This document shows, piece by piece, positions 8,892 to 27,522 of a DNA stretch of 32,000 bases. Source of the DNA: Parasynechococcus marenigrum WH 8102 (GTDB taxonomy: Bacteria; Cyanobacteriota; Cyanobacteriia; PCC-6307; Cyanobiaceae). The translations under genes and the position numbers were made by a program. Numbering within the stretch: position 1 is the first letter of the stretch; every line of letters starts with the position of its first letter. The notes beneath the pieces are model-generated. The model was given only the letters and a program-made list of their open reading frames with translations, searched no databases and was not told the origin of the DNA. The DNA is taken from NCBI RefSeq assembly GCF_000195975.1, contig NC_005070.1, positions 2,340,001 through 2,372,000 of the forward strand, written 5' to 3'.

Positions 8892-8934
8892 AAGGTAAAA
8901 AAGGGCCCCCCACCGCTTTGGTATCAACCGGAAC
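8892..8934 (-). promoter_or_regulatory. candidate NtcA-activated promoter of urtA
   Basis: The minus strand reads GTTCCGGTTGATAC (GT-N10-AC; GTA-N8-AAC on the plus strand, 8921..8934), then 23 nt, then TACCTT (TA-N3-T -10 box, 8897..8892). This gives a 5' UTR of roughly 40 nt before ATG 8847. Confidence 0.5.
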
Positions 8935-14138: not shown

Positions 14139-14181
14139 GTATCAAGATGAACAACATTCAAGAATTCATCCCCTGCATAAT
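14139..14181 (+). promoter_or_regulatory. candidate NtcA-type promoter upstream of the DUF4278 mini-gene
   Basis: GTATCAAGATGAAC (GTA-N8-AAC, 14139..14152), then 23 nt, then CATAAT (14176..14181), in an AT-rich gap downstream of ureC. Confidence 0.45.
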
Positions 14182-14285
14182 TATTTTGCAGCAACTGCTA
14201 CAGACGTTCACCTCGCCAGCCTCGGCAAGGCGCAGTTCGACTCAGGCCATGGAACGGGGACCTGAGCTTGCTTCGAGGAACCACC

Positions 14286-14453
14286 ATGACGACTCTTCTC
14301 TACAGAGGACACGCCTACCAGCAGGTCAAAGACGCTGCTCAACAGCAGGGCGTGCAACTCACCTACCGCCGCAACGTGTATCAAGCCCGCCAGGCTGATG
14401 TGCGTCAGGCCCAGGTTCAGCTCACCTATCGGGGTGTCAGCTACCTGCGCTGA
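14286..14453 (+). CDS. DUF4278-family small protein (55 aa) with three L-x-Y-R-x-x-x-Y repeats
   Basis: ATG 14286 is preceded by GAGGAA; the track ORF begins at TTG 14268. The LTYRGVSY motif is typical of DUF4278. Confidence 0.6.
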   Translation: MTTLLYRGHAYQQVKDAAQQQGVQLTYRRNVYQARQADVRQAQVQLTYRGVSYLR

Positions 14454-14464
14454 AACCCGCTTCT

Positions 14465-15139
14465 TCAGGCGACAAGCCGGTTGAGCATGGGCAATTCCAG
14501 CAGTTCATCGCGCCACTGCTGAGCCCATCGATCCTGGCTGCGTTCGTAGAGCTCCATCAGCTCCTCGACCGCACCGGAGCGGAAGTCAACGCGAAGGTCC
14601 AGCAACGGAAATGCCGCTTCGCCGCTCACCTGCAGAGCGGCGGATGTGCAGCTTGATGCGCGTTGGTCGCCACCAGCCTGCTCTCCTGCCTGCAGGGCCG
14701 TCATCAAACGACGGCCCAGTTTCCAGTTGGGATCACTGGTGAGAAACGTCTGTTCCATCGCCTCCAGCACCACTTCGCCAGCCAGGCAATTTCCCGCAAC
14801 CGAAAGGTTGGGATGGTGCCGATGACCCGCCCATCCGCCGCACTCAACTCCAGTCCAGCAAGCAGTCCGGCCATCAAGATCGATCAGATGGAACTGGCGC
14901 CAATCCCGTTGGGGGTCATCCAGCAGAAGGCTGTTCAGCACATCCTGCGCATCCGCATGATGTTCAAGACGCTCCAGTCCGCAAATTCCCAGATAAGGAT
15001 TGGTGTGGGCTTGGGTTGCAACGGCACCTACTCCAGATCGGATGTGGGGAACAGTGGAGCCCACAGCCAGGTGACAGGTCGCCACGGCAACGCCGAAACG
15101 ACCGTTGTTGGGATCACGCGCCAGGATTGAGAAGGTCAA
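14465..15139 (-). CDS. DUF1028-family Ntn-hydrolase-fold protein
   Basis: The MTFSILARDP N-terminus (Thr2 as putative nucleophile) is characteristic of DUF1028. TTG start overlaps the upstream stop by 4 nt (TTGA). Confidence 0.7.
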   Translation of the reverse strand: MTFSILARDPNNGRFGVAVATCHLAVGSTVPHIRSGVGAVATQAHTNPYLGICGLERLEHHADAQDVLNSLLLDDPQRDWRQFHLIDLDGRTACWTGVECGGWAGHRHHPNLSVAGNCLAGEVVLEAMEQTFLTSDPNWKLGRRLMTALQAGEQAGGDQRASSCTSAALQVSGEAAFPLLDLRVDFRSGAVEELMELYERSQDRWAQQWRDELLELPMLNRLVA

Positions 15140-16452
15140 GACAGCTCGCGATCCAAACGCTGCAGAGTCCCCAGCAAGACGGCAGCCCCAGCCCAGCAGT
15201 GCTCGTCACTGGTGAATTCCTTGGATGAGTGGCTAACCCCACCACGGCTGGGGACGAAAATCATTCCCATCGGCCAGCGACGTCCGATCTCCTGCGCATC
15301 GTGACTGGCACGGCTGGGAAGGTGGCTATGCGACAACCCCAGATCCTCTGCAGCAGAAACGATCGCTGCCATCACTCCATCCGCTGCAGCTGTGGGTTCC
15401 ACCTCAAATTGAGGTTCCAACTGGATCGGGCATCCGGTTTCGGCACCGATCCGCTCCAACTGCTGCATCAACTCAGCCACCAACTGATCGAGCACAACTG
15501 AATTCACATCCCGGAGGTCAACGGTCAGCGCCACTGAGCCAGGCACCACATTGGCGGCGTTGGGCCAGACCTCGAGTCGTCCGACTGTGGCAACGGGATC
15601 ACCTGGGTGCTGTCTGGCCATCGTCTCCACCGCCAGCACGATCCGGGACGCCGCCACCAAAGCGTCTTGCCGCAGCTTCATCGGCGTGGTGCCGGCGTGG
15701 TTCGGCTGACCATCCACCTGGATGCTGAAACGGCGTTGTCCCACAACGCCCTCCACCACACCGATGGCGTCACCGCGTTGCTCGAGCACGCCTCCCTGTT
15801 CCACATGGAGCTCGAGAAAAGCAGCACAGGCGTCGTCCGCCCGACGTGCTGAGACCAGCGATGGCCAGTGACCACCGATACGAGCGAGATTGTCCTCGAT
15901 CGGTTCCCGATTGCTGGTGGCATAGGCCTTGGGGTCACAGGAAGCCGTACCGGCCATGCCCTTGCACCCGACCATCGTCGATTCCTCATCGGCGAAGGCG
16001 ATCAACTCGAGATCGTGCTGAAGACGAATGCTGTTGTCCTGCAGGGAGCGACAAACTTCAAGACCTGCCAAAACCCCCAACACACCGTCAAAACGACCAC
16101 CGGTGGGAACGGTGTCGAGGTGGGAACCGGTCATCAGTGCTGGGCGATCCGGATCCAACCCCTGAAGCCGACCGATCAGGTTGCCCGCCGTATCGATCCG
16201 AACCTGAAGGCCAGCCTCGTTCATCCATCGGGCCAGCAAGGAACGTCCCGCAACGTCCTCAGTCGAGAAACCCCGTCGACAGACGCTGCCATCGGGCTGC
16301 AGCCCAATGGCAGCCATTTCAGCCAAGGAGTGCATCAGACGCTCACGGTTGGGTCGAATGCCCACCTGTGCTTTCGACCGAGCAGTGACCTGGCGAGTGG
16401 TCAGGAGGGACGGCAATGCAGTGGCCTTCAGATCAAAAGATCGAATCACCAT
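15136..16452 (-). CDS. M20-family Zn amidohydrolase of the allantoate amidohydrolase / N-carbamoyl-L-amino-acid hydrolase / beta-ureidopropionase group
   Basis: GSHLDTVPTGGRFDGVLGV, FADEES, ELHVEQG, HAGTTPM and PSRGGVSHS motifs; 438 aa. Confidence 0.85.
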   Translation of the reverse strand: MVIRSFDLKATALPSLLTTRQVTARSKAQVGIRPNRERLMHSLAEMAAIGLQPDGSVCRRGFSTEDVAGRSLLARWMNEAGLQVRIDTAGNLIGRLQGLDPDRPALMTGSHLDTVPTGGRFDGVLGVLAGLEVCRSLQDNSIRLQHDLELIAFADEESTMVGCKGMAGTASCDPKAYATSNREPIEDNLARIGGHWPSLVSARRADDACAAFLELHVEQGGVLEQRGDAIGVVEGVVGQRRFSIQVDGQPNHAGTTPMKLRQDALVAASRIVLAVETMARQHPGDPVATVGRLEVWPNAANVVPGSVALTVDLRDVNSVVLDQLVAELMQQLERIGAETGCPIQLEPQFEVEPTAAADGVMAAIVSAAEDLGLSHSHLPSRASHDAQEIGRRWPMGMIFVPSRGGVSHSSKEFTSDEHCWAGAAVLLGTLQRLDRELS

Positions 16453-16511
16453 CGCCGCAGCGACCCAAACGCCCTGTCGTCAATGCGACGTTTTAACCCT
16501 CACCAAAGAAT

Positions 16512-18536
16512 TCAAACGGGCATCAGCACCCGCCACCCGAGGCGATCGGCCTGCTCACGAGCCTGGGCTGGCACATCGGCCGCTACAAACATCCGATGCA
16601 GCATCTGGACACCCAGGAGGTGGTTGATGACGGCATCCATCTGAACCCGCTCGGCGTCGGTGGTGGCAGGGTCGTCGTGGCGCGCAAACAAGGCACGCAC
16701 GCCCTCTTTGCTCAACAACCCAGCCGCATCAATCGCTTCATCACTCAGGTAGTCATCAGCCAACTGCTTCATTTGCGCCCACTTCTCGGGCTCGGTGTGG
16801 GCCGGGGGCGCCATGAAGGCAAATTTTTCGCGCTTGTAAAGCACCTCCGGCAGCAGACCCGCCATGGCCTCCCGCAGCACATATTTCTCAGTTTTTCCCT
16901 TGATCCGCAGCTCCGGAGGCACTTGTACCGCCGCAGCCGCCAGATGGTGATCCAGGAAAGCCGGCCGTGCCTCCATGGAGTTGGCCATGTCGACGCGATC
17001 ACCTCCCCAGGTGAGGATCTGGCCTTCCAACATTGTTTTGATCCAGACGTACTGAGCCTTGTCGAGGGCATGGCGACCATCGAGTTGCTGGGGATTCAAC
17101 TGCTCAGCAATGGCTTTACCTGGCGAGTACTCCACCAACGCCTGACGGTGCTCGTCAGCCAGCAGATCCGGCACCAGCGGCGCGCAGGCCAGCCAGGGCT
17201 GCAGACAGCTGGGGGTGAAGCCCACCACGGCATCAAGATCGGGATCATCCACCTGATCAGCCGCCAGCATTGCTCCCTGCACCAGGGAATTGTTGGTCTG
17301 CAGCAGAGACTCCCAATCCTGGCGATCGCTCTGCGGCAGGTCCTCCAGACCATGGAGGAACATGTCACGCCGGAACGCGGGATAGCCACCGAACAGCTCG
17401 TCTGACCCTTCCCCAGTCATCACGACTTTGTAGTCGACACTATTGACATGGCGACTCATTAAGTATTTGGCCACAGCCAAGGTGTTGTAGATCGTGCGCT
17501 CGGTATGCCAGAGCGTTTGTTCCATGTGGCCGTACAACTCACGACCCGACAGACGCATGACGTCCTGCTCGGCACCGGTGGCCTCCGCCATCTCCGCAGC
17601 AATGGGTGTTTCGTCGTAGCGCGCATCATCGAATCCGATCGTGAACGCCTTGACGGGACCCTGACTCACCGCCGAAGCAAGACCGAGGATCGAACAACTG
17701 TCGATTCCGCCTGAGAGATAACAACCCACGGGCACGTCGGCCACCATCCGCATCTCCACCGCTTCCAGCAGAGCAGCACGAACATTGGCGATGTGATCAG
17801 CCTCCGTGAGGGTGCTGTCCCGCTGATCCAAACGTGGAAAATCGACATCCCAGTAGGTCGACTCCGACACCTCCAGCCGGTCACTCCTGCGCTGCACCTT
17901 CAGCACATGACCAGGCTGAACTTGGTGCACCCCGGCGAAGGCGGTCGTTCCCGGGACCATGGTCTGCATCAACTGATGAAAGAGACCCTCCGACGTGAAG
18001 CGTCGCTCCACGGCCTGGTGAGCAAACAGCACCTTCAACTCGGAGCCGAACACCAACCCCTCCGGCGTCATCGTCCAGTACTGGGGCTTGATGCCGAAGC
18101 GATCCCTCACCAGATAGAGACAGTCATCCGCCGCATCAAACAGAGCAAAGGCGAATTCCCCCCGCAGCAGAGGCAACGTGGACTCGAGACCCTGCCGTTG
18201 ATACAGGCGCAACAAAATCTCGGAATCACTCTTCGAGGAGAAACGCACTCCCTGGGCGGTGAGATCAGCACGGATGCGCTGAAAGTCGTAGAACTCGCCG
18301 TTGTGCGCCATCAGCACCTGCCGGTCGTTGCTGAGAAACGGCTGACGTGCCCGGGATTCGTTCAGATCAATAATCGACAACCGGGCATGACAGAAGCCGA
18401 CACCGGCTGCGTCGAGGCATTCCACACCGAAACCATCCGGTCCGCGATGGGACTGGATGGCCGCCATGTTGACCAACAGCTGGCGATCCAACGTCTGATG
18501 ACGATCCGCCAGAAACACACCTCCGATTCCGCACAT
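16512..18536 (-). CDS. asparagine synthetase B-type glutamine-dependent amidotransferase (long, 674 aa)
   Basis: N-terminal MCGIGGVF (Cys2 Ntn glutaminase) and PP-loop SGGIDSC. It starts 9 nt after the upstream transcarbamylase gene. Confidence 0.85.
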   Translation of the reverse strand: MCGIGGVFLADRHQTLDRQLLVNMAAIQSHRGPDGFGVECLDAAGVGFCHARLSIIDLNESRARQPFLSNDRQVLMAHNGEFYDFQRIRADLTAQGVRFSSKSDSEILLRLYQRQGLESTLPLLRGEFAFALFDAADDCLYLVRDRFGIKPQYWTMTPEGLVFGSELKVLFAHQAVERRFTSEGLFHQLMQTMVPGTTAFAGVHQVQPGHVLKVQRRSDRLEVSESTYWDVDFPRLDQRDSTLTEADHIANVRAALLEAVEMRMVADVPVGCYLSGGIDSCSILGLASAVSQGPVKAFTIGFDDARYDETPIAAEMAEATGAEQDVMRLSGRELYGHMEQTLWHTERTIYNTLAVAKYLMSRHVNSVDYKVVMTGEGSDELFGGYPAFRRDMFLHGLEDLPQSDRQDWESLLQTNNSLVQGAMLAADQVDDPDLDAVVGFTPSCLQPWLACAPLVPDLLADEHRQALVEYSPGKAIAEQLNPQQLDGRHALDKAQYVWIKTMLEGQILTWGGDRVDMANSMEARPAFLDHHLAAAAVQVPPELRIKGKTEKYVLREAMAGLLPEVLYKREKFAFMAPPAHTEPEKWAQMKQLADDYLSDEAIDAAGLLSKEGVRALFARHDDPATTDAERVQMDAVINHLLGVQMLHRMFVAADVPAQAREQADRLGWRVLMPV

Positions 18537-18545
18537 CAGTTCGCC

Positions 18546-19733
18546 TCAGATCACATCCATCACGCGCTCGGCACGATTCACCATGCAGGTGAGCAGTGCC
18601 ATGCGCACAAACACCGCCCCACGCGCCTGGCTGAAATACCAGTTGTGCGGCGTGTCATCGAGACAGGTGCTCAGCTCGGGACCCCGGGCCAGGGGATGCA
18701 ACACGATCGCCTCCGGCTTGAACGGCAGATCCCGGGTGAGACGAAATCCACCGCCGTGCACCTCGTAGCTGTCGCCAACCCAGGCAATCGCATTGATGTA
18801 GACGACATCCAGATCGGGAATCTCAGCAGCCAGATCTGAACTGCAGCGGATGGACATCCCGCTTGCTTCCAGTTCCTCCAGCTGGCCTGGATCAAACAAA
18901 GGCGCTTCCGACTCCATCTCGGGCGCATGGATCACCACCACCTCCTCCAGGATCTGGGGGAATTTGCTGAGGATCCGCAGCAGCGAACGCACGGTGCGCA
19001 TCCGCGACGGCAAACCGATCACCCCGATGCGGATCCGATCCTTCGGGGAGACCTCTTTCGAAGCAAGGCTTGGACGCCATTTGAACATCGTGTAGAGATC
19101 CGCCATCGCCTGTGTCGGATGCTCATCAATGCCATTACCGGCATTGATGATCGGAATCCGCAGGGTGGAACTCATGGCGTACACGGCCTCCGGATTGCTG
19201 TCGCGTAGCACCACGCAGTCGCCGTAGTTGTTGAACATGTGCGCCACGTCCTCGAGCGACTCCCCCTTGGCGATGCCGGTGGTGCTGCGATCGGTGATGT
19301 TGATCGAATCACCGCCGAGGCGATGCCAGGCGCTGTCGAAGGAAAGGCGTGTGCGCGTGCTGGGCTCGTAGAACGCGTTGATCAGGATCTTGCCGGTGAG
19401 CGGCGTGTTGTGCCGGCAGTAACGGTCTGGGTTGCTCTCGAATTTCGCCGCCAGTCGAAACAACTGGAGCAGGGTTTCAGCACGAAATGCCTGAATCGAC
19501 ACCACGTGTTGATCGACAAGATCCACCAACGGCTCACCGTCTTCAGCAATTGCGGCCAAAAGCTCCTGCGGCTGATTGTGGCCGAACACATCAGGACCCA
19601 TCGGCTGGAAGCGGAGCGGCGCCGAAGCCTCCTCGATCACGGCTGTGTGGGGTTGTGCCATAAGCATTTGCATCAACACCCGATTTGCCAGATCGCGTGA
19701 TGTGCCATGAATCACATCATCCTTCGCTAACAA
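18546..19733 (-). CDS. ATCase-like transcarbamylase of unknown acceptor specificity (start codon uncertain)
   Basis: STRTR and HPTQ carbamoyl-phosphate motifs, RTVRSL (R167 equivalent), HPLAR, and C-terminal TPHNWYFSQARGAVFVRMALL close to E. coli PyrB [21 protein letters not shown]. The track ORF begins at TTG 19733. In-frame ATGs lie at 19673 and 19601. Confidence 0.8.
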   Translation of the reverse strand: MLAKDDVIHGTSRDLANRVLMQMLMAQPHTAVIEEASAPLRFQPMGPDVFGHNQPQELLAAIAEDGEPLVDLVDQHVVSIQAFRAETLLQLFRLAAKFESNPDRYCRHNTPLTGKILINAFYEPSTRTRLSFDSAWHRLGGDSINITDRSTTGIAKGESLEDVAHMFNNYGDCVVLRDSNPEAVYAMSSTLRIPIINAGNGIDEHPTQAMADLYTMFKWRPSLASKEVSPKDRIRIGVIGLPSRMRTVRSLLRILSKFPQILEEVVVIHAPEMESEAPLFDPGQLEELEASGMSIRCSSDLAAEIPDLDVVYINAIAWVGDSYEVHGGGFRLTRDLPFKPEAIVLHPLARGPELSTCLDDTPHNWYFSQARGAVFVRMALLTCMVNRAERVMDVI

Positions 19734-19768
19734 CGAACCAGCACCCCTGACCAGCTTAAAAGAAGTTC

Positions 19769-19805
19769 TTTATACAAATAACTGGCAAATAGTTCGAATG
19801 AATAC
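19769..19805 (-). promoter_or_regulatory. candidate promoter of the transcarbamylase operon (NtcA-like site plus strong -10)
   Basis: The minus strand reads GTATTCATTCGAAC (GTA-N8-AAC, 19805..19792), then 17 nt, then TATAAA (19774..19769). The spacing is shorter than the canonical ~22 nt. Confidence 0.35.
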
Positions 19806-19837
19806 CAAATCCGCCGCAAATTGTTCACTTTGAACAT

Positions 19838-19984
19838 TCACCAGACGCGTCCATTGCGCCACTCAAACCACCAAATCACCAGCAATGCGAGCACAGAACA
19901 GACGAGCGCCACCTGGCTTCCCACCAGGACCAGACCGAACCAGTGTTGATCCACCAGAACCGTGAGCAGCAACGCATTGGCCAT
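19838..19984 (-). CDS. unlisted 48-aa single-TM mini-ORF immediately downstream of the symporter
   Basis: My translation: MANALLLTVLVDQHWFGLVLVGSQVALVCSVLALLVIWWFEWRNGRVW. The ATG lies 5 nt after the symporter stop. It is below the ORF-track length cut-off. Confidence 0.35.
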   Translation of the reverse strand: MANALLLTVLVDQHWFGLVLVGSQVALVCSVLALLVIWWFEWRNGRVW

Positions 19985-19989
19985 GGCGT

Positions 19990-21420
19990 TCACACCCCCT
20001 CTTGCAGACGATTGAAATCAAACCCTTCCGGCTGCCAGCGGCTGCCCACCACCATCACGACAGCCGAAACGGCTGCGGAGAACACTGCCGCGCAATAGGG
20101 AGCAATCAGAACGTAAGCCGATAGTCCGACGGCACTGCCGGCTGCCATGGCGACGATCGCTGCCCAACGATTGGCAGAAGACCAGTAGAGACCGCAAGCC
20201 ACAGGCCAGACCGTGGAGGCCACCAACGCACCGGTGAAGAACAGCACCGACGCCAACGAATCCAGTCGCGGCCAGGACAGGGCCAGGGTGAGAACAGACA
20301 GGCCAACCACCATCTGCCGGGCCGCCTGCTTGAGCTGTGCATCGCTCGCCTGAGGGCGCAGCAGACGGAAATAGACGTCTTCCGCCAGCAGATCCGCCGT
20401 GGACGCCAACAGCGAATCCAGGGTGGAGGTGAGTGACGCGAAGACCACCACAAACACCAGTGCCGCCCCACCAGCCCCCAGAAGATCGGCCGCCATTACA
20501 GGGAACACCATGTTCACCTGCTCCAGCGGCAGGTCCCTGGCCAGCGCCACCAGACCGATCGATCCCGTCACCAGGGGGATACTCATCCAGGCCAATCCCC
20601 CCAAGACAAACGAGGTCATCACCACACTGCGCCGGCTGGCGAACACCCGCGACCACCAGATGTTGTTGTGAAAGACCTCACCCATCGAGAACAGGGCGGA
20701 ATTCCAGGCGATCAGCAGACCAGCCGGAAGCAAGAGATCCAGCCGGTCAGGGTGCGTACTGATCAAGCGAGCATGCACCTCCGGCATCGGGAACTGACGG
20801 AACGCCAGCACCGCCACCACCGCCAGCAACACCATGATCAGCAGCGACTGGATGAAATCGGTTCCGATCACTGCCCGCATGCCACCGAACAGGGTGTAAA
20901 CGGTGGAGACGCCGATCACCACCACCATGCCTACGTGGTAATCGAAGCCGGAGAGCGCCTGAAGCAACAGACCGGCCCCCATGGCCTGGGTCATCAGAAA
21001 ACCGAGGGTGTACACAGCGGTGATCACCATGAACACCCACCACGCCAGGCGCCCGTAACGCAACCGGATGAAATCGCCACTGGTGCGGCCATGCGGCATC
21101 AGCTGCTTGATCCGCACGGCCAGCGGCGCGAACAGGATCAAGCCCAGACCGGCCAGGGCATAACTGAACATGCCCCAAAGACCAGTCCTGTAGCCGAATT
21201 CCGGAGCCAGCAGTGTGGTGTTTCCGGTCACCCAGGAGGCCATCAGCGTGGCCGTGCTCAACGCCAACCCGATGTTGCGTCCGGCCAGCATGTAGTCGTC
21301 GGCATCTCCTTTACCGCGGCGGCCCCAGACGATCCCCAAGGCGATCCACAGCACGGAAAACAACACAACCAGGGCCCAGGCGATGCCAGGCGCCAGAAAA
21401 GGTGCGGCGTCAGCGGGCAT
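19990..21420 (-). CDS. sodium:solute symporter (SSS) family transporter
   Basis: About 476-aa polytopic protein with an SSS-like N-terminal region (YMLAGRNIGLALSTATLMASWVTGNT...). I prefer ATG 21420; the track ORF starts at GTG 21438. Confidence 0.85.
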   Translation of the reverse strand: MPADAAPFLAPGIAWALVVLFSVLWIALGIVWGRRGKGDADDYMLAGRNIGLALSTATLMASWVTGNTTLLAPEFGYRTGLWGMFSYALAGLGLILFAPLAVRIKQLMPHGRTSGDFIRLRYGRLAWWVFMVITAVYTLGFLMTQAMGAGLLLQALSGFDYHVGMVVVIGVSTVYTLFGGMRAVIGTDFIQSLLIMVLLAVVAVLAFRQFPMPEVHARLISTHPDRLDLLLPAGLLIAWNSALFSMGEVFHNNIWWSRVFASRRSVVMTSFVLGGLAWMSIPLVTGSIGLVALARDLPLEQVNMVFPVMAADLLGAGGAALVFVVVFASLTSTLDSLLASTADLLAEDVYFRLLRPQASDAQLKQAARQMVVGLSVLTLALSWPRLDSLASVLFFTGALVASTVWPVACGLYWSSANRWAAIVAMAAGSAVGLSAYVLIAPYCAAVFSAAVSAVVMVVGSRWQPEGFDFNRLQEGV

Positions 21421-21535
21421 CGACCGACCCCCGATCACGCCAGTGCAGATGGCCCTGAATGATCATCGCCACCGTTGCCAGGGTCACCGCAGCACCGAGG
21501 GCAAAGACCAGTCCAGCCCAGAGATTGTCATCCAA
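21410..21535 (-). CDS. unlisted 41-aa single-TM mini-ORF overlapping the symporter start
   Basis: TTG 21535 is preceded by AAGAGGAGA with a 7-nt spacer. The product is (M)DDNLWAGLVFALGAAVTLATVAMIIQGHLHWRDRGSVDAR. Its TGA (21412..21410) overlaps codons 3-4 of the symporter, which suggests translational coupling. Confidence 0.35.
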   Translation of the reverse strand: MDDNLWAGLVFALGAAVTLATVAMIIQGHLHWRDRGSVDAR

Positions 21536-21669
21536 AGCGAATCTCCTCTTCAGCAGATCTCAGACAAGCAAATCGCGGTGTTCTTGAGCTTGCATTCACG
21601 AATAACAAGTCGCTGGCGCTACCCAAATCACAGGCTGTCAGCGCACTGATGCCTTCAATCTCGAAATGT

Positions 21670-21683
21670 GTAGCAATCACAAC
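21670..21683. promoter_or_regulatory. GTA-N8-AAC motif in the divergent gap between the symporter unit and the ATP-grasp operon
   Basis: GTAGCAATCACAAC shares GTAGCAAT with the site upstream of nrtP. I found no well-spaced -10 box on either strand. Confidence 0.2.
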
Positions 21684-21733
21684 CCGCGGGGCCCTGATCG
21701 AGTTTTTGGATGCGCCTATTCATCGTTCAGGCA

Positions 21734-23206
21734 ATGTTCACCGAGTACCGACCAACCCATGGGTACGACGAATATTTTTGCCGTGAACAGTCCGCTCCCC
21801 GCGCTGATCTGGAGCCGCTGCTGTCCTCCCTTGGAGCCATGGGGCTGGCGGAACTGAATCGCAGTCATGCATCAGCGAGCAATCTGTTGCGACGTCTTGG
21901 CGCCACCTTCCGACTCAACGGATCAGGTCTGCATGGCGGAGAGCGGATCCTTCCCTTCGATCCACTGCCAAGACTCATTCACCGTCAGGAATGGTCCGTT
22001 CTGGAGCGCGGATTGGTGCAACGCCTGGAGGCCATTGATCAGTTTCTGGCGGACGTTTATGGACCCCAACGGATCCTCAATGATGGCGTGATCCCCCGTG
22101 AGGATGTGGAGAGCTCCCAGGGCTGGCGGCCCCAGATGCAGGACATCGCCGTGCCGCTCAACCGCTGGTGCCACATCTCAGGTCTGGATCTGATCCGCGA
22201 TGGCGACGGCACCTGGAGGGTTCTGGAGGACAACCTGCGCTGCCCCTCTGGCGTGGCTTATTTCCTTGAGAACCGTCGGGTGATGAAGCGGTTGTTCCCC
22301 AGCCTGTTCCAAGGGCGAACCGTGCAGCCGATCGACGATTACCCCTCCCATCTCTTGCGCACGTTGCAGGATCTGGCTCCTTGGAGTGATGCCCCACGGG
22401 TGGTGCTGCTCACCCCCGGCGTGTTCAACAGCGCCTACTTCGAGCACAGCTATCTGGCCCAGCAGATGGGCATTGCCCTGGTGGAAGGCCGCGATCTGAT
22501 CTGTGAAGACGGACGCGTCTGGATGCGCAGCACGGCCGGTCGGGAACCTGTGGATGTGATCTACCGGCGCATCGATGACGATTTCCTCGATCCGAACGTG
22601 TTCCGACGCGATTCGATGCTCGGTGTCCCCGGCCTCATCGATGCCATGCGCTCCGGTCGGGTGGCCATCGCCAACGCCCCTGGGAGCGGTGTCGCTGACG
22701 ACAAGCTGATCTATGCCTACGTGCCGGCCATGATCCGTTACTACCTCAACGAAGAACCGATCATCGACAACGTCCCCACCTATCTCTGCTCAAGGGACGA
22801 CGACCGCCGTTATGTGCTCGAACATCTCAACGAACTGGTAGTGAAATCAGTCGCCGAGGCAGGCGGCTACGGAATGTTGATCGGGCCCCATGCCAGTTCT
22901 GAGGAGATTGAGAGCTTCGCGGTGAAGATCAAGGCTCACCCGCGCAATTTCATCGCCCAGCCCACCCTGCAGTTATCCACAGTTCCATCCCTGAGCGAAG
23001 GGGAGCTGTACCCCTGCCATGTGGATCTGCGCCCCTACGTGCTCCGGGGTAAAAGCGACTGGGTCAGCCCCGGCGGCTTGACTCGTGTAGCCCTGAAACG
23101 CGGTTCCCTTGTGGTGAACTCCTCCCAGGGGGGCGGCTGCAAGGACACCTGGGTGGTCAGCGACAGTGCCGTAACGGCTGGCAATCAGGAGCTCGTGCCG
23201 TGCTGA
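21734..23206 (+). CDS. circularly permuted type-2 ATP-grasp protein (DUF404/DUF407 family)
   Basis: MFTEYRPTHGYDEYF...ERILPFDPLPRLIHRQEWSVLERGLVQRLEAIDQFLADVYG...VLEDNLRCPSGVAYFLENRRVMKRLFP matches the family pattern as I recall it. An alternative ATG lies at 21710. Confidence 0.85.
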   Translation: MFTEYRPTHGYDEYFCREQSAPRADLEPLLSSLGAMGLAELNRSHASASNLLRRLGATFRLNGSGLHGGERILPFDPLPRLIHRQEWSVLERGLVQRLEAIDQFLADVYGPQRILNDGVIPREDVESSQGWRPQMQDIAVPLNRWCHISGLDLIRDGDGTWRVLEDNLRCPSGVAYFLENRRVMKRLFPSLFQGRTVQPIDDYPSHLLRTLQDLAPWSDAPRVVLLTPGVFNSAYFEHSYLAQQMGIALVEGRDLICEDGRVWMRSTAGREPVDVIYRRIDDDFLDPNVFRRDSMLGVPGLIDAMRSGRVAIANAPGSGVADDKLIYAYVPAMIRYYLNEEPIIDNVPTYLCSRDDDRRYVLEHLNELVVKSVAEAGGYGMLIGPHASSEEIESFAVKIKAHPRNFIAQPTLQLSTVPSLSEGELYPCHVDLRPYVLRGKSDWVSPGGLTRVALKRGSLVVNSSQGGGCKDTWVVSDSAVTAGNQELVPC

Positions 23207-27405: not shown

Positions 27406-27522
27406 GAAGTCGTTCCCTGTTGATTGATTAACTGCCCGAGTTAACGGATTTTTTTCGACCGTTTCGCCACCCACGGGCACCCTTTCGTTTTGAAGCCCGC
27501 GGTTTCAACATTTCTCTTCTCA

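Follow-up and report, generated by a model that had tools for sequence, protein, structure and literature searches.

Certain paralogues of aspartate carbamoyltransferase (ATCase) were named pseudo-ATCases by Barba, Dutoit, Legrain & Labedan (2013, BMC Syst Biol 7:99; PMC4016543), who gave STRT, HPTQ, HPLA and AIA, AIS or SIA as group motifs. Genes of their marine subgroup, for which Synechococcus sp. WH 8102 and Kangiella koreensis are named, have as neighbours a Na+ symporter, an 'asparaginase' and an M20 HyuC-like gene. Here we analyze the gene pyrB2, which lies on the minus strand of a stretch of 32,000 nucleotides from Parasynechococcus marenigrum WH 8102 (NC_005070.1, positions 2,340,001 to 2,372,000; this whole stretch is called the window below). 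Its product is very probably a transcarbamylase with an acceptor other than aspartate. With a probability of about one half, in our estimate, it is a competent transcarbamylase of the marine pseudo-ATCase subgroup which, paired with an AsnB-like enzyme, would make an N-carbamoyl amino-acid amide.

The sole characterised pseudo-ATCase, Rxyl_2847 of Rubrobacter xylanophilus, phosphorolyses allantoate (Barba et al. 2013, PMC4016543). The Rubrobacter enzyme is a ureidoglycine transcarbamylase (UGTCase) with the motif H(T/S)LP (Shi et al. 2015, PMC4581275). The table and the figure of Barba et al. number the pseudo-ATCase groups differently, but since the characterised enzyme has H(T/S)LP, the HPLA group must be the marine, uncharacterised one. 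Doré et al. (2023, ISME J 17:720; PMC10119275) call the gene pyrB2, describe a cluster asnB-pyrB2-pydC and suggest for it an alternative pyrimidine pathway. They find the cluster in one fifth of the high-light II Prochlorococcus, with the Red Sea standing out, and in the majority of the Synechococcus from warm, iron-replete, nitrogen- and phosphorus-depleted waters. Schriek et al. (2007) list SYNW2454, the locus tag that pyrB2 would have in WH 8102, together with two further WH 8102 genes, SYNW1586 and SYNW0296, in a column that we read as carbamoyltransferases. Literature searches with the locus tags gave nothing on function; one mention of SYNW2451 concerns psbA, apparently by misprint.

The loss of the aspartate ligands and the inference of a non-aspartate acceptor are therefore not new, as both are already published for this very gene family with Synechococcus WH 8102 among the named members. 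What we add is the start codon, a conserved N-terminal extension, residue counts, the invariable pairing with the AsnB-like gene, a sister subfamily linked to carAB, an NtcA-type box and the finding that Prochlorococcus has lost the transporter.

The acceptor site of the pyrB2 product

The pyrB2 protein was aligned with HMMER to the solved ATCases of M. jannaschii (2rgw) and Arabidopsis (6yw9), the motif coordinates were checked by translation, and residues were counted in an alignment of 212 full-length relatives. The original prediction, which had been made from the letters of the sequence, held that the carbamoyl-phosphate site is kept, and the alignments bear this out. STRTR, HPTQ, AKGES (K84) and VLRD (R105) are all retained, and throughout the relatives K84 and the residues for carbamoyl phosphate vary hardly or not at all (T53 in 211 of 212). 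Also kept, as had been stated, are the equivalent of R167 (arginine in 211 of the 212) and the C-terminal helix typical of PyrB.

In ATCase, R229 and Q231 hold the beta-carboxylate of aspartate, and its alpha-carboxylate is brought into place by R167 and K84 (Shi et al. 2015, PMC4581275). The claim that both R229 and Q231 have become alanine proved correct: YINAIAW lies in register with Y-x-T-R-x-Q-K of both solved structures. The family as a whole behaves likewise. At the R229 position we count 195 alanines, 15 serines and 2 threonines and at the Q231 position 181 alanines, 29 serines, one threonine and one valine; arginine or glutamine occurs at neither. The T228 equivalent is asparagine in all 212 sequences and the K232 equivalent tryptophan in 211. 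The predicted change of HPLPR to HPLAR is equally general, with alanine in 212 of 212. Judged from these counts, the acceptor pocket is rewritten family-wide, and this is neither chance nor decay. The binding of carbamoyl phosphate and of the alpha-amino-acid backbone appears to be kept, and only the recognition of the aspartate side chain appears to be lost.

Two further checks had been proposed with the original prediction, a structural model and a search for a canonical pyrB elsewhere in the genome. The AlphaFold model, computed with 33 relatives, has the ATCase fold, with a predicted local distance difference test score (pLDDT) of 80.9 and a predicted template-modelling (TM) score (pTM) of 0.85. 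Its best Foldseek matches are ATCases, namely human CAD (5g1n), E. coli (1d09) and P. abyssi (1ml4), at TM scores of 0.83-0.86 and about 30% identity. The genome, a single contig of 2,434,428 bp, does contain a canonical PyrB (LRLQKER, HPGP) at about 295 kb, and in addition an ArgF (D-V-W-A-S-M-G, HCLP) at about 1.527 Mb.

The classification by profiles agrees. The pyrB2 protein stays below the NCBIfam cut-offs for ATCase (TIGR00670, 195 versus 236.95 bits; NF002032, 187 versus 263 bits) and reaches at most 111 bits with the ornithine carbamoyltransferase (OTCase) models, whose cut-offs exceed 280; the OTCase motifs D-x-x-x-S-M-G and H-C-L-P are both absent from it. In a profile search covering 1.84 billion cluster representatives the marine family forms one 50%-identity cluster at 611 bits, versus at most 227 bits for canonical ATCases. 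The motif set, the syntenic block (see below) and a separate genuine ATCase in the same organism are those of the marine pseudo-ATCase subgroup. The predicted transcarbamylase with a non-aspartate acceptor is thus supported, as far as motifs, the separate canonical PyrB and ArgF and the non-pyrimidine gene context can tell.

Public records annotate the gene as an aspartate carbamoyltransferase, and metabolic models therefore likely inherit a wrong function. This annotation, together with the fact that the closest solved relatives are ATCases, might be taken to mean that pyrB2 encodes a second genuine ATCase isoenzyme which binds aspartate by other residues. We consider this extremely improbable in view of the missing arginine and glutamine at positions 229 and 231, the scores below both ATCase equivalog cut-offs, the canonical PyrB already present in the genome, the separate clade at about 611 bits and the observation that among the loci inspected a pyrB2 homologue is never found beside pyrC or pyrI. 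Very improbable as well is a pseudoenzyme without catalysis, which would do no more than bind carbamoyl phosphate or serve as a scaffold for the amidotransferase. A more distant group with a similar N-terminal extension does have degenerate catalytic motifs; in the pyrB2 family, however, the equivalents of S52, R54, T55, K84, R105, H134, Q137 and L267 are invariant, a pattern expected of an active enzyme.

The N-terminal extension deserves a closer look. The open reading frame (ORF) 18546-19733 on the minus strand matches the Pfam families OTCace_N (2.7e-40) and OTCace (5e-13). Its first start codon is a TTG at 19733. In an alignment of the upstream regions, however, single-nucleotide indels upstream of the ATG at 19661 break the frame in close relatives (L006 and L014 versus the window), and the relatives usually have 354-375 amino acids. 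We therefore place the start at the ATG at 19661 and not at the TTG. For more distant relatives the alignment begins at residue 23-25 of the 395-amino-acid reading. With 371 amino acids the protein extends about 50 residues beyond PyrB; thus the extension that had been predicted is real, but its length of up to about 75 residues is not. The first 17-21 residues are variable and predicted to be disordered. Residues 18-52 are kept across phyla (cyanobacteria and proteobacteria), with D24, G27, P31, L34, L35, E40, L45 and H52 invariant in the 212 sequences, and are modelled as two short helices with a pLDDT of about 88. Canonical ATCases are without this conserved extension. Fused forms of more than 650 amino acids were searched for and none was found.

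Gene neighbourhood and a proposed pathway

The features of the locus are collected in Table 1. On the minus strand the order is a 41-amino-acid mini-ORF, the symporter of the sodium:solute symporter (SSS) family, a 48-amino-acid mini-ORF, pyrB2, the AsnB-like gene, the M20 gene and the DUF1028 gene. This cluster lies between urease and a circularly permuted ATP-grasp operon.

Table 1. Features of the pyrB2 locus; positions are those of the window.
Feature	Position	Strand	Basis or remark
pyrB2 / pseudo-ATCase coding sequence	18546..19661	minus	371 aa from ATG at 19661; ORF, Pfam and relatives
In-frame stretch from TTG at 19733	19662..19733	minus	probably 5' leader, noncoding
Conserved part of N-terminal extension, residues 18-52	19506..19610	minus	F..PDV.G..P..LL..I.E.G..L..L..QH
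STRTR, carbamoyl-phosphate motif (S52-R56 equivalents)	19347..19361	minus	alignment and translation
HPTQ, carbamoyl-phosphate motif (H134-Q137 equivalents)	19110..19121	minus	alignment and translation
MRTVRS	18984..19001	minus	first Arg is the R167 equivalent, alpha-carboxylate ligand
YINAIAW, replacing ATCase Y-x-T-R-x-Q-K	18780..18800	minus	R229 to Ala, Q231 to Ala, T228 to Asn, K232 to Trp
HPLAR, replacing HPLPR	18684..18698	minus	P268 to Ala
AsnB-like glutamine amidotransferase, 674 aa	16512..18536	minus	Pfam GATase_6/7 and Asn_synthase; 9 nt 3' of pyrB2
M20 N-carbamoyl-amino-acid amidohydrolase (pydC of Doré et al.)	15136..16452	minus	NCBIfam
DUF1028 Ntn-type hydrolase	14465..15139	minus	Pfam DUF1028, 4.3e-65; start overlaps M20 stop
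Sodium:solute symporter (SSS family)	19990..21438	minus	Pfam SSF
48-aa one-helix mini-ORF between symporter and pyrB2	19838..19984	minus	translation
41-aa one-helix mini-ORF just upstream of symporter	21410..21535	minus	one-helix ORF
NtcA-type box GTA-N8-AAC upstream of pyrB2	19792..19805	minus	relaxed-motif scan

Relatives of pyrB2 occur in 491 species genomes (scan of one genome per species), and the family comprises over 1,400 clusters when proteins are grouped at 90% identity; the named carriers are mostly marine or saline taxa. Our neighbourhood counts rest on 80 loci. The AsnB-like gene is immediately downstream in 68 of the 68 loci with enough sequence, and in sister subfamilies, at less than 50% identity, the two genes are still paired. 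In our view the 'asparaginase' of the earlier description is really this AsnB-like gene. Its protein passes TIGR01536 (425 versus 267 bits) and has the catalytic Cys2 and the SGGIDS PP-loop; as both are present, it probably spends ATP and glutamine. Where E. coli AsnB has R325, an arginine important for the activation of aspartate, the alignment shows an alanine in this protein, and this would fit a different acyl substrate.

The remaining genes are less uniform. The M20 gene is present in 44 of 46 loci. Its protein reaches 427 bits with an ErtE-like model (below the cut-off of 520) and 387 bits with the hydantoinase/carbamoylase family; the best equivalog, N-carbamyl-L-glutamate amidohydrolase, is likewise below cut-off, and the closest solved relative is the L-carbamoylase 3n5f. 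DUF1028 is found in 36 of 36 cyanobacterial and in none of 10 proteobacterial loci. The sole solved relative is 2imh, and we found no functional literature on the family. Where DUF1028 is missing, Thiothrix has an isochorismatase-like protein with weak similarity to biuret hydrolase and RutB, and an alphaproteobacterial locus has an alpha/beta-hydrolase instead. Cyanobium keeps DUF1028, and beside its symporter there is also an asparaginase-II gene. The symporter itself is immediately upstream in all 32 Synechococcus/Cyanobium and all 11 proteobacterial loci and in none of the 22 Prochlorococcus-type loci. Prochlorococcus MIT 9314 has the four enzyme genes only, in an island near hli genes and with no trace of the symporter.

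Some side observations concern these loci. At the place of the 48-amino-acid mini-ORF a gene of about 40 codons is called in proteobacterial and sister loci, and in proteobacteria this gene, which follows the symporter, overlaps the start of the transcarbamylase. The place of the 41-amino-acid mini-ORF is taken in proteobacteria by a protein of 141-186 amino acids with a C-terminal membrane helix and no Pfam match; the two versions read, from Kangiella and Idiomarina, are hydrophobic at the N-terminus as well. The asparaginase-II family gene was inspected in one locus, L035, where it is directly upstream of the symporter (L035:4692-5663). In eight Cyanobium-type loci (L032-L036, L039, L070, L072) carB is found about 3 kb upstream on the opposite strand.

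We suggest a pathway that proceeds as follows. The acceptor would be an L-alpha-amino acid whose side chain is neutral and probably longer, with glutamine as the best candidate. Because Prochlorococcus keeps the four enzymes without the transporter, the acceptor should be endogenous. The pyrB2 enzyme would carbamoylate the alpha-amino group in the biosynthetic direction and pass the N-carbamoyl product to the AsnB-like enzyme, which would turn a carboxylate into a carboxamide at the expense of ATP and glutamine. The product would thus be an N-carbamoyl amino-acid amide. The symporter could import or recapture this amide, as is usual for loci of compatible solutes. For degradation an accessory amidase (DUF1028 here; elsewhere the isochorismatase-like protein, the alpha/beta-hydrolase or the asparaginase-II), followed by the M20 decarbamoylase, would yield glutamate, ammonia and CO2. 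M20 carbamoylases need a free carboxylate beside the ureido group. The amide must therefore be opened before M20 acts, and this would explain why non-homologous amidases recur in the clusters.

That the transcarbamylase and the amidotransferase form an anabolic two-enzyme module we consider probable. The identity of the product is far more tentative; the leading candidate is carbamoyl-glutamine amide. The NCBIfam AsnB-like model for the N-acetylglutaminylglutamine amide (NAGGN) amidotransferase may serve as a precedent for the amidation of an N-blocked glutamine. Carbamoyl-glutamine amide has been known since 1991, and we know of no genes that have been assigned to it. The compound exists in nature (Roberts 2005; Imhoff 2020). 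The proposed pathway also draws some support from the best equivalog of the M20 protein, from the mostly marine or saline habitats of the named carriers and from the prominence of the Prochlorococcus cluster in the Red Sea.

The sister subfamilies score between the marine family and the ATCases. They have intact STRTR and HPTQ, HPLA, and x-N-(S/A/V)-(I/L)-x where ATCase has T-R-x-Q. One of them (P0220) has the same block of symporter, mini-ORF, enzyme pair and M20 gene. Another (P0224) forms a tight operon of carA, carB, transcarbamylase and AsnB-like gene; carbamoyl phosphate would therefore be made for the enzyme, which is an anabolic signature. Two more (P0222 and P0233) lie in operons with TenA, ThiD-like kinases and thymidylate-synthase-like and dCMP-deaminase-like genes.

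These last operons bear on a different reading, namely that the product is a heterocycle or an amidine or guanidine, made for example by an alternative pyrimidine route or by adenylation and amination of a ureido to a guanidino group. The synthetase domains of the AsnB type are part of the PP-loop superfamily, some members of which adenylate ureido or lactam oxygens, and this counts in favour of such chemistry. So do the non-conserved R325, the just mentioned TenA, ThiD-like, thymidylate-synthase-like and dCMP-deaminase-like enzymes of the sisters together with a dihydroorotase (DHOase)-like amidohydrolase, and the pyrimidine pathway proposed by Doré et al. (2023, PMC10119275). The latter suggestion is disfavoured because the ligands for the aspartate side chain, which the normal pyrimidine route uses, are lost. 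No cyclase or dihydroorotase-like gene is found in the marine cluster, and the M20 carbamoylase and the amidases rather suggest an open-chain ureido amide. We are also aware of no precedent for an AsnB-like enzyme that converts a ureido to a guanidino group. Overall we regard a heterocyclic or guanidino product as quite unlikely.

Among individual sister loci, a carA-carB-HPLA-type transcarbamylase-AsnB-like operon is found at L091:3568-10929 (and in L092) on a metagenomic contig of 41% GC; about 2.4 kb upstream of it, the opposite strand carries a Glyco_transf_20/S6PP fusion, a gene of the sugar-phosphate synthase/phosphatase type. Two HPLA-type sisters (L090:8001-17080 and L094:1-15000) are accompanied by JmjC/cupin, TenA, APH-type kinase, dCMP-deaminase-like, thymidylate-synthase-like, ThiD-like and nucleoside deoxyribosyltransferase-like genes; one has the AsnB-like partner and the other the DHOase-like amidohydrolase instead. 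From their gene content these two operons look like clusters for pyrimidine or hydroxymethylpyrimidine (HMP) antimetabolites. The more distant group mentioned above (P0225, P0228-P0232, P0235-P0239, P0243, P0248, P0250 and P0272; 354-374 amino acids) has the ATCase fold and an N-terminal extension (E-H-x-V-A ... I-P), and STRTR, KGES and HPTQ are all eroded. Its members are probably true inactive pseudoenzymes.

Apparent nitrogen control and the direction of the proposed pathway

The NtcA-type box upstream of pyrB2 recurs in many Synechococcus loci at a fixed distance from the ATG (-145 to -151), and several of these loci have a perfect GTA-N8-TAC. About 11 Prochlorococcus loci also have a perfect box, which keeps a fixed position. 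The window has no perfect GTA-N8-TAC. The relaxed motif GTA-N8-(A/T)AC occurs eight times in the window versus 2.6 expected, and one of 100 shuffles reaches eight. Thus, the picocyanobacterial operon appears to be under nitrogen control by NtcA, as far as such motifs can indicate it, and the box could mediate repression and not activation.

The eight relaxed boxes are at 8921, 8972, 14139, 16190, 19792, 21670, 27392 and 31880. Those that could be placed are in or beside promoter regions of the nitrogen island, namely upstream of pyrB2, of the ATP-grasp operon and of the ORF starting at 27490 and at the start of a DUF4278 mini-gene (14139-14453); the box at 16190 falls inside the M20 gene. In Prochlorococcus MIT 9314 a 1.1-kb AT-rich gap upstream of the cluster (L058:6836-7952) holds a perfect GTA-N8-TAC, and about 100 nucleotides downstream of it is an ORF of 33 amino acids with a DUF4278-type L-x-Y-R-G repeat, which parallels the DUF4278 mini-gene of the window. 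A scan with the sigma-70 consensus found no promoter. Fourteen runs labelled metatranscriptomic hold 100% of positions 14400-21800; at 3 million letters each they look like contig sets of genome size and not like expression data, and they can reveal neither expression nor a 5' end.

These signs of nitrogen control raise the question whether the pathway runs in the opposite direction. The symporter could import a ureido compound (an N-carbamoyl amino acid or one that resembles allantoate), which is cleaved with phosphate to carbamoyl phosphate and an amine as by UGTCase, and M20 and DUF1028 would free the remaining nitrogen. Such a catabolic scavenging route is in line with the phosphorolysis of allantoate by Rxyl_2847 (Barba et al. 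2013, PMC4016543), with the conserved NtcA-type box, with the position of pyrB2 in a nitrogen-assimilation island beside urease, with the enrichment of the cluster in nitrogen-depleted waters (Doré et al. 2023, PMC10119275), with the operon coupling of the symporter in Synechococcus and proteobacteria and with the relationship of the M20 enzymes to allantoate and ureidoglycolate amidohydrolases. It would, however, leave no role for the obligate partner, an amidotransferase that consumes ATP and glutamine. It also fits poorly with the Prochlorococcus loci, which are without a transporter, with the sister subfamily that shares its operon with carbamoyl-phosphate synthetase, and with HPLA in place of the UGTCase motif H(T/S)LP.

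Catabolic transcarbamylases, moreover, typically cluster with carbamate kinase. The UGTCase cluster is an example (Barba et al. 2013, PMC4016543). We found no carbamate kinase in the neighbourhoods inspected and none above cut-off in the genome, which likewise has no match above cut-off to hydantoinase or allantoinase. Taken together, a catabolic role of pyrB2 seems unlikely to us.

Several points nevertheless weigh against the proposed synthesis of an N-carbamoyl amino-acid amide. The NtcA-type box and the enrichment in nitrogen- and phosphorus-depleted waters fit the scavenging of nitrogen better than the synthesis of a solute with four nitrogen atoms, and the locus could serve mainly to mobilise nitrogen. 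If one operon served both synthesis and degradation, the cycle would be futile, barring post-translational control. Two sisters lie in pyrimidine-antimetabolite-like clusters, so that the product of the module may not be an osmolyte at all. Carriers of the cluster further include Cyanobium and Thiothrix lineages and metagenome-assembled genomes labelled only 'uncultured cyanobacterium'. To our knowledge carbamoyl-glutamine amide has not been reported from cyanobacteria, and Ectothiorhodospira, the only known producer, is not among the 120 best matches listed in a homologue search that started from a gammaproteobacterial member, which is not evidence of its absence. It is because of the signs of nitrogen control and of the co-transcription of synthesis and degradation that we hold our estimate for this particular product low.

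Carbamoyl-glutamine amide as the product would have consequences beyond this locus. Should this reading prove true, for which the odds are clearly below even, many marine bacteria would make, import and recycle a nitrogen-rich uncharged solute under nitrogen control, be it as an osmolyte, as a nitrogen reserve or as both. Its users would include the Synechococcus of warm oligotrophic seas and one fifth of the high-light Prochlorococcus. The family is large and ecologically patterned, and it could yield a new transcarbamylase specificity as well as the genes for an orphan osmolyte.

Comparison with known systems

With its motif set and gene context pyrB2 is a full member of the marine pseudo-ATCase subgroup, and we see no difference between them. 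With PyrB (E. coli 1d09/1q95, human CAD 5g1n, P. abyssi 1ml4) the protein shares the fold, the carbamoyl-phosphate site, R167, K84 and the C-terminal helix. It differs from PyrB by the replacement of R229, Q231 and P268 with alanine, by the N-terminal extension of about 50 residues, by the lack of a pyrC/pyrI context and by scores below the equivalog cut-offs.

UGTCase is similar in that it is a paralogue of the ATCase branch without R-x-Q, and it uses a neutral look-alike of aspartate. It is a catabolic enzyme with H(T/S)LP and G-x-(S/C), encoded in a cluster with carbamate kinase and allantoinase. In contrast, pyrB2 has HPLA and A-I-A and no carbamate kinase, and its partner is an ATP-dependent amidotransferase.

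A parallel for the two-enzyme module as a whole is the NAGGN pathway (asnO-ngg and a hydrolase), whose product is an uncharged osmolyte. There too an enzyme that blocks the alpha-amino group of glutamine, an AsnB-like amidotransferase for the amidation of the carboxylate and a metallohydrolase are encoded in one cluster. The amidotransferases are distinct, as the AsnB-like protein of the window reaches 294 bits with the NAGGN amidotransferase model versus a cut-off of 570 (NCBIfam 'trio' models, TIGR03104 etc.). The blocking group differs as well: in NAGGN it is acetyl-glutaminyl and is attached by a GNAT/ATP-grasp enzyme, whereas in the case of pyrB2 it would be a carbamoyl group transferred by a transcarbamylase.

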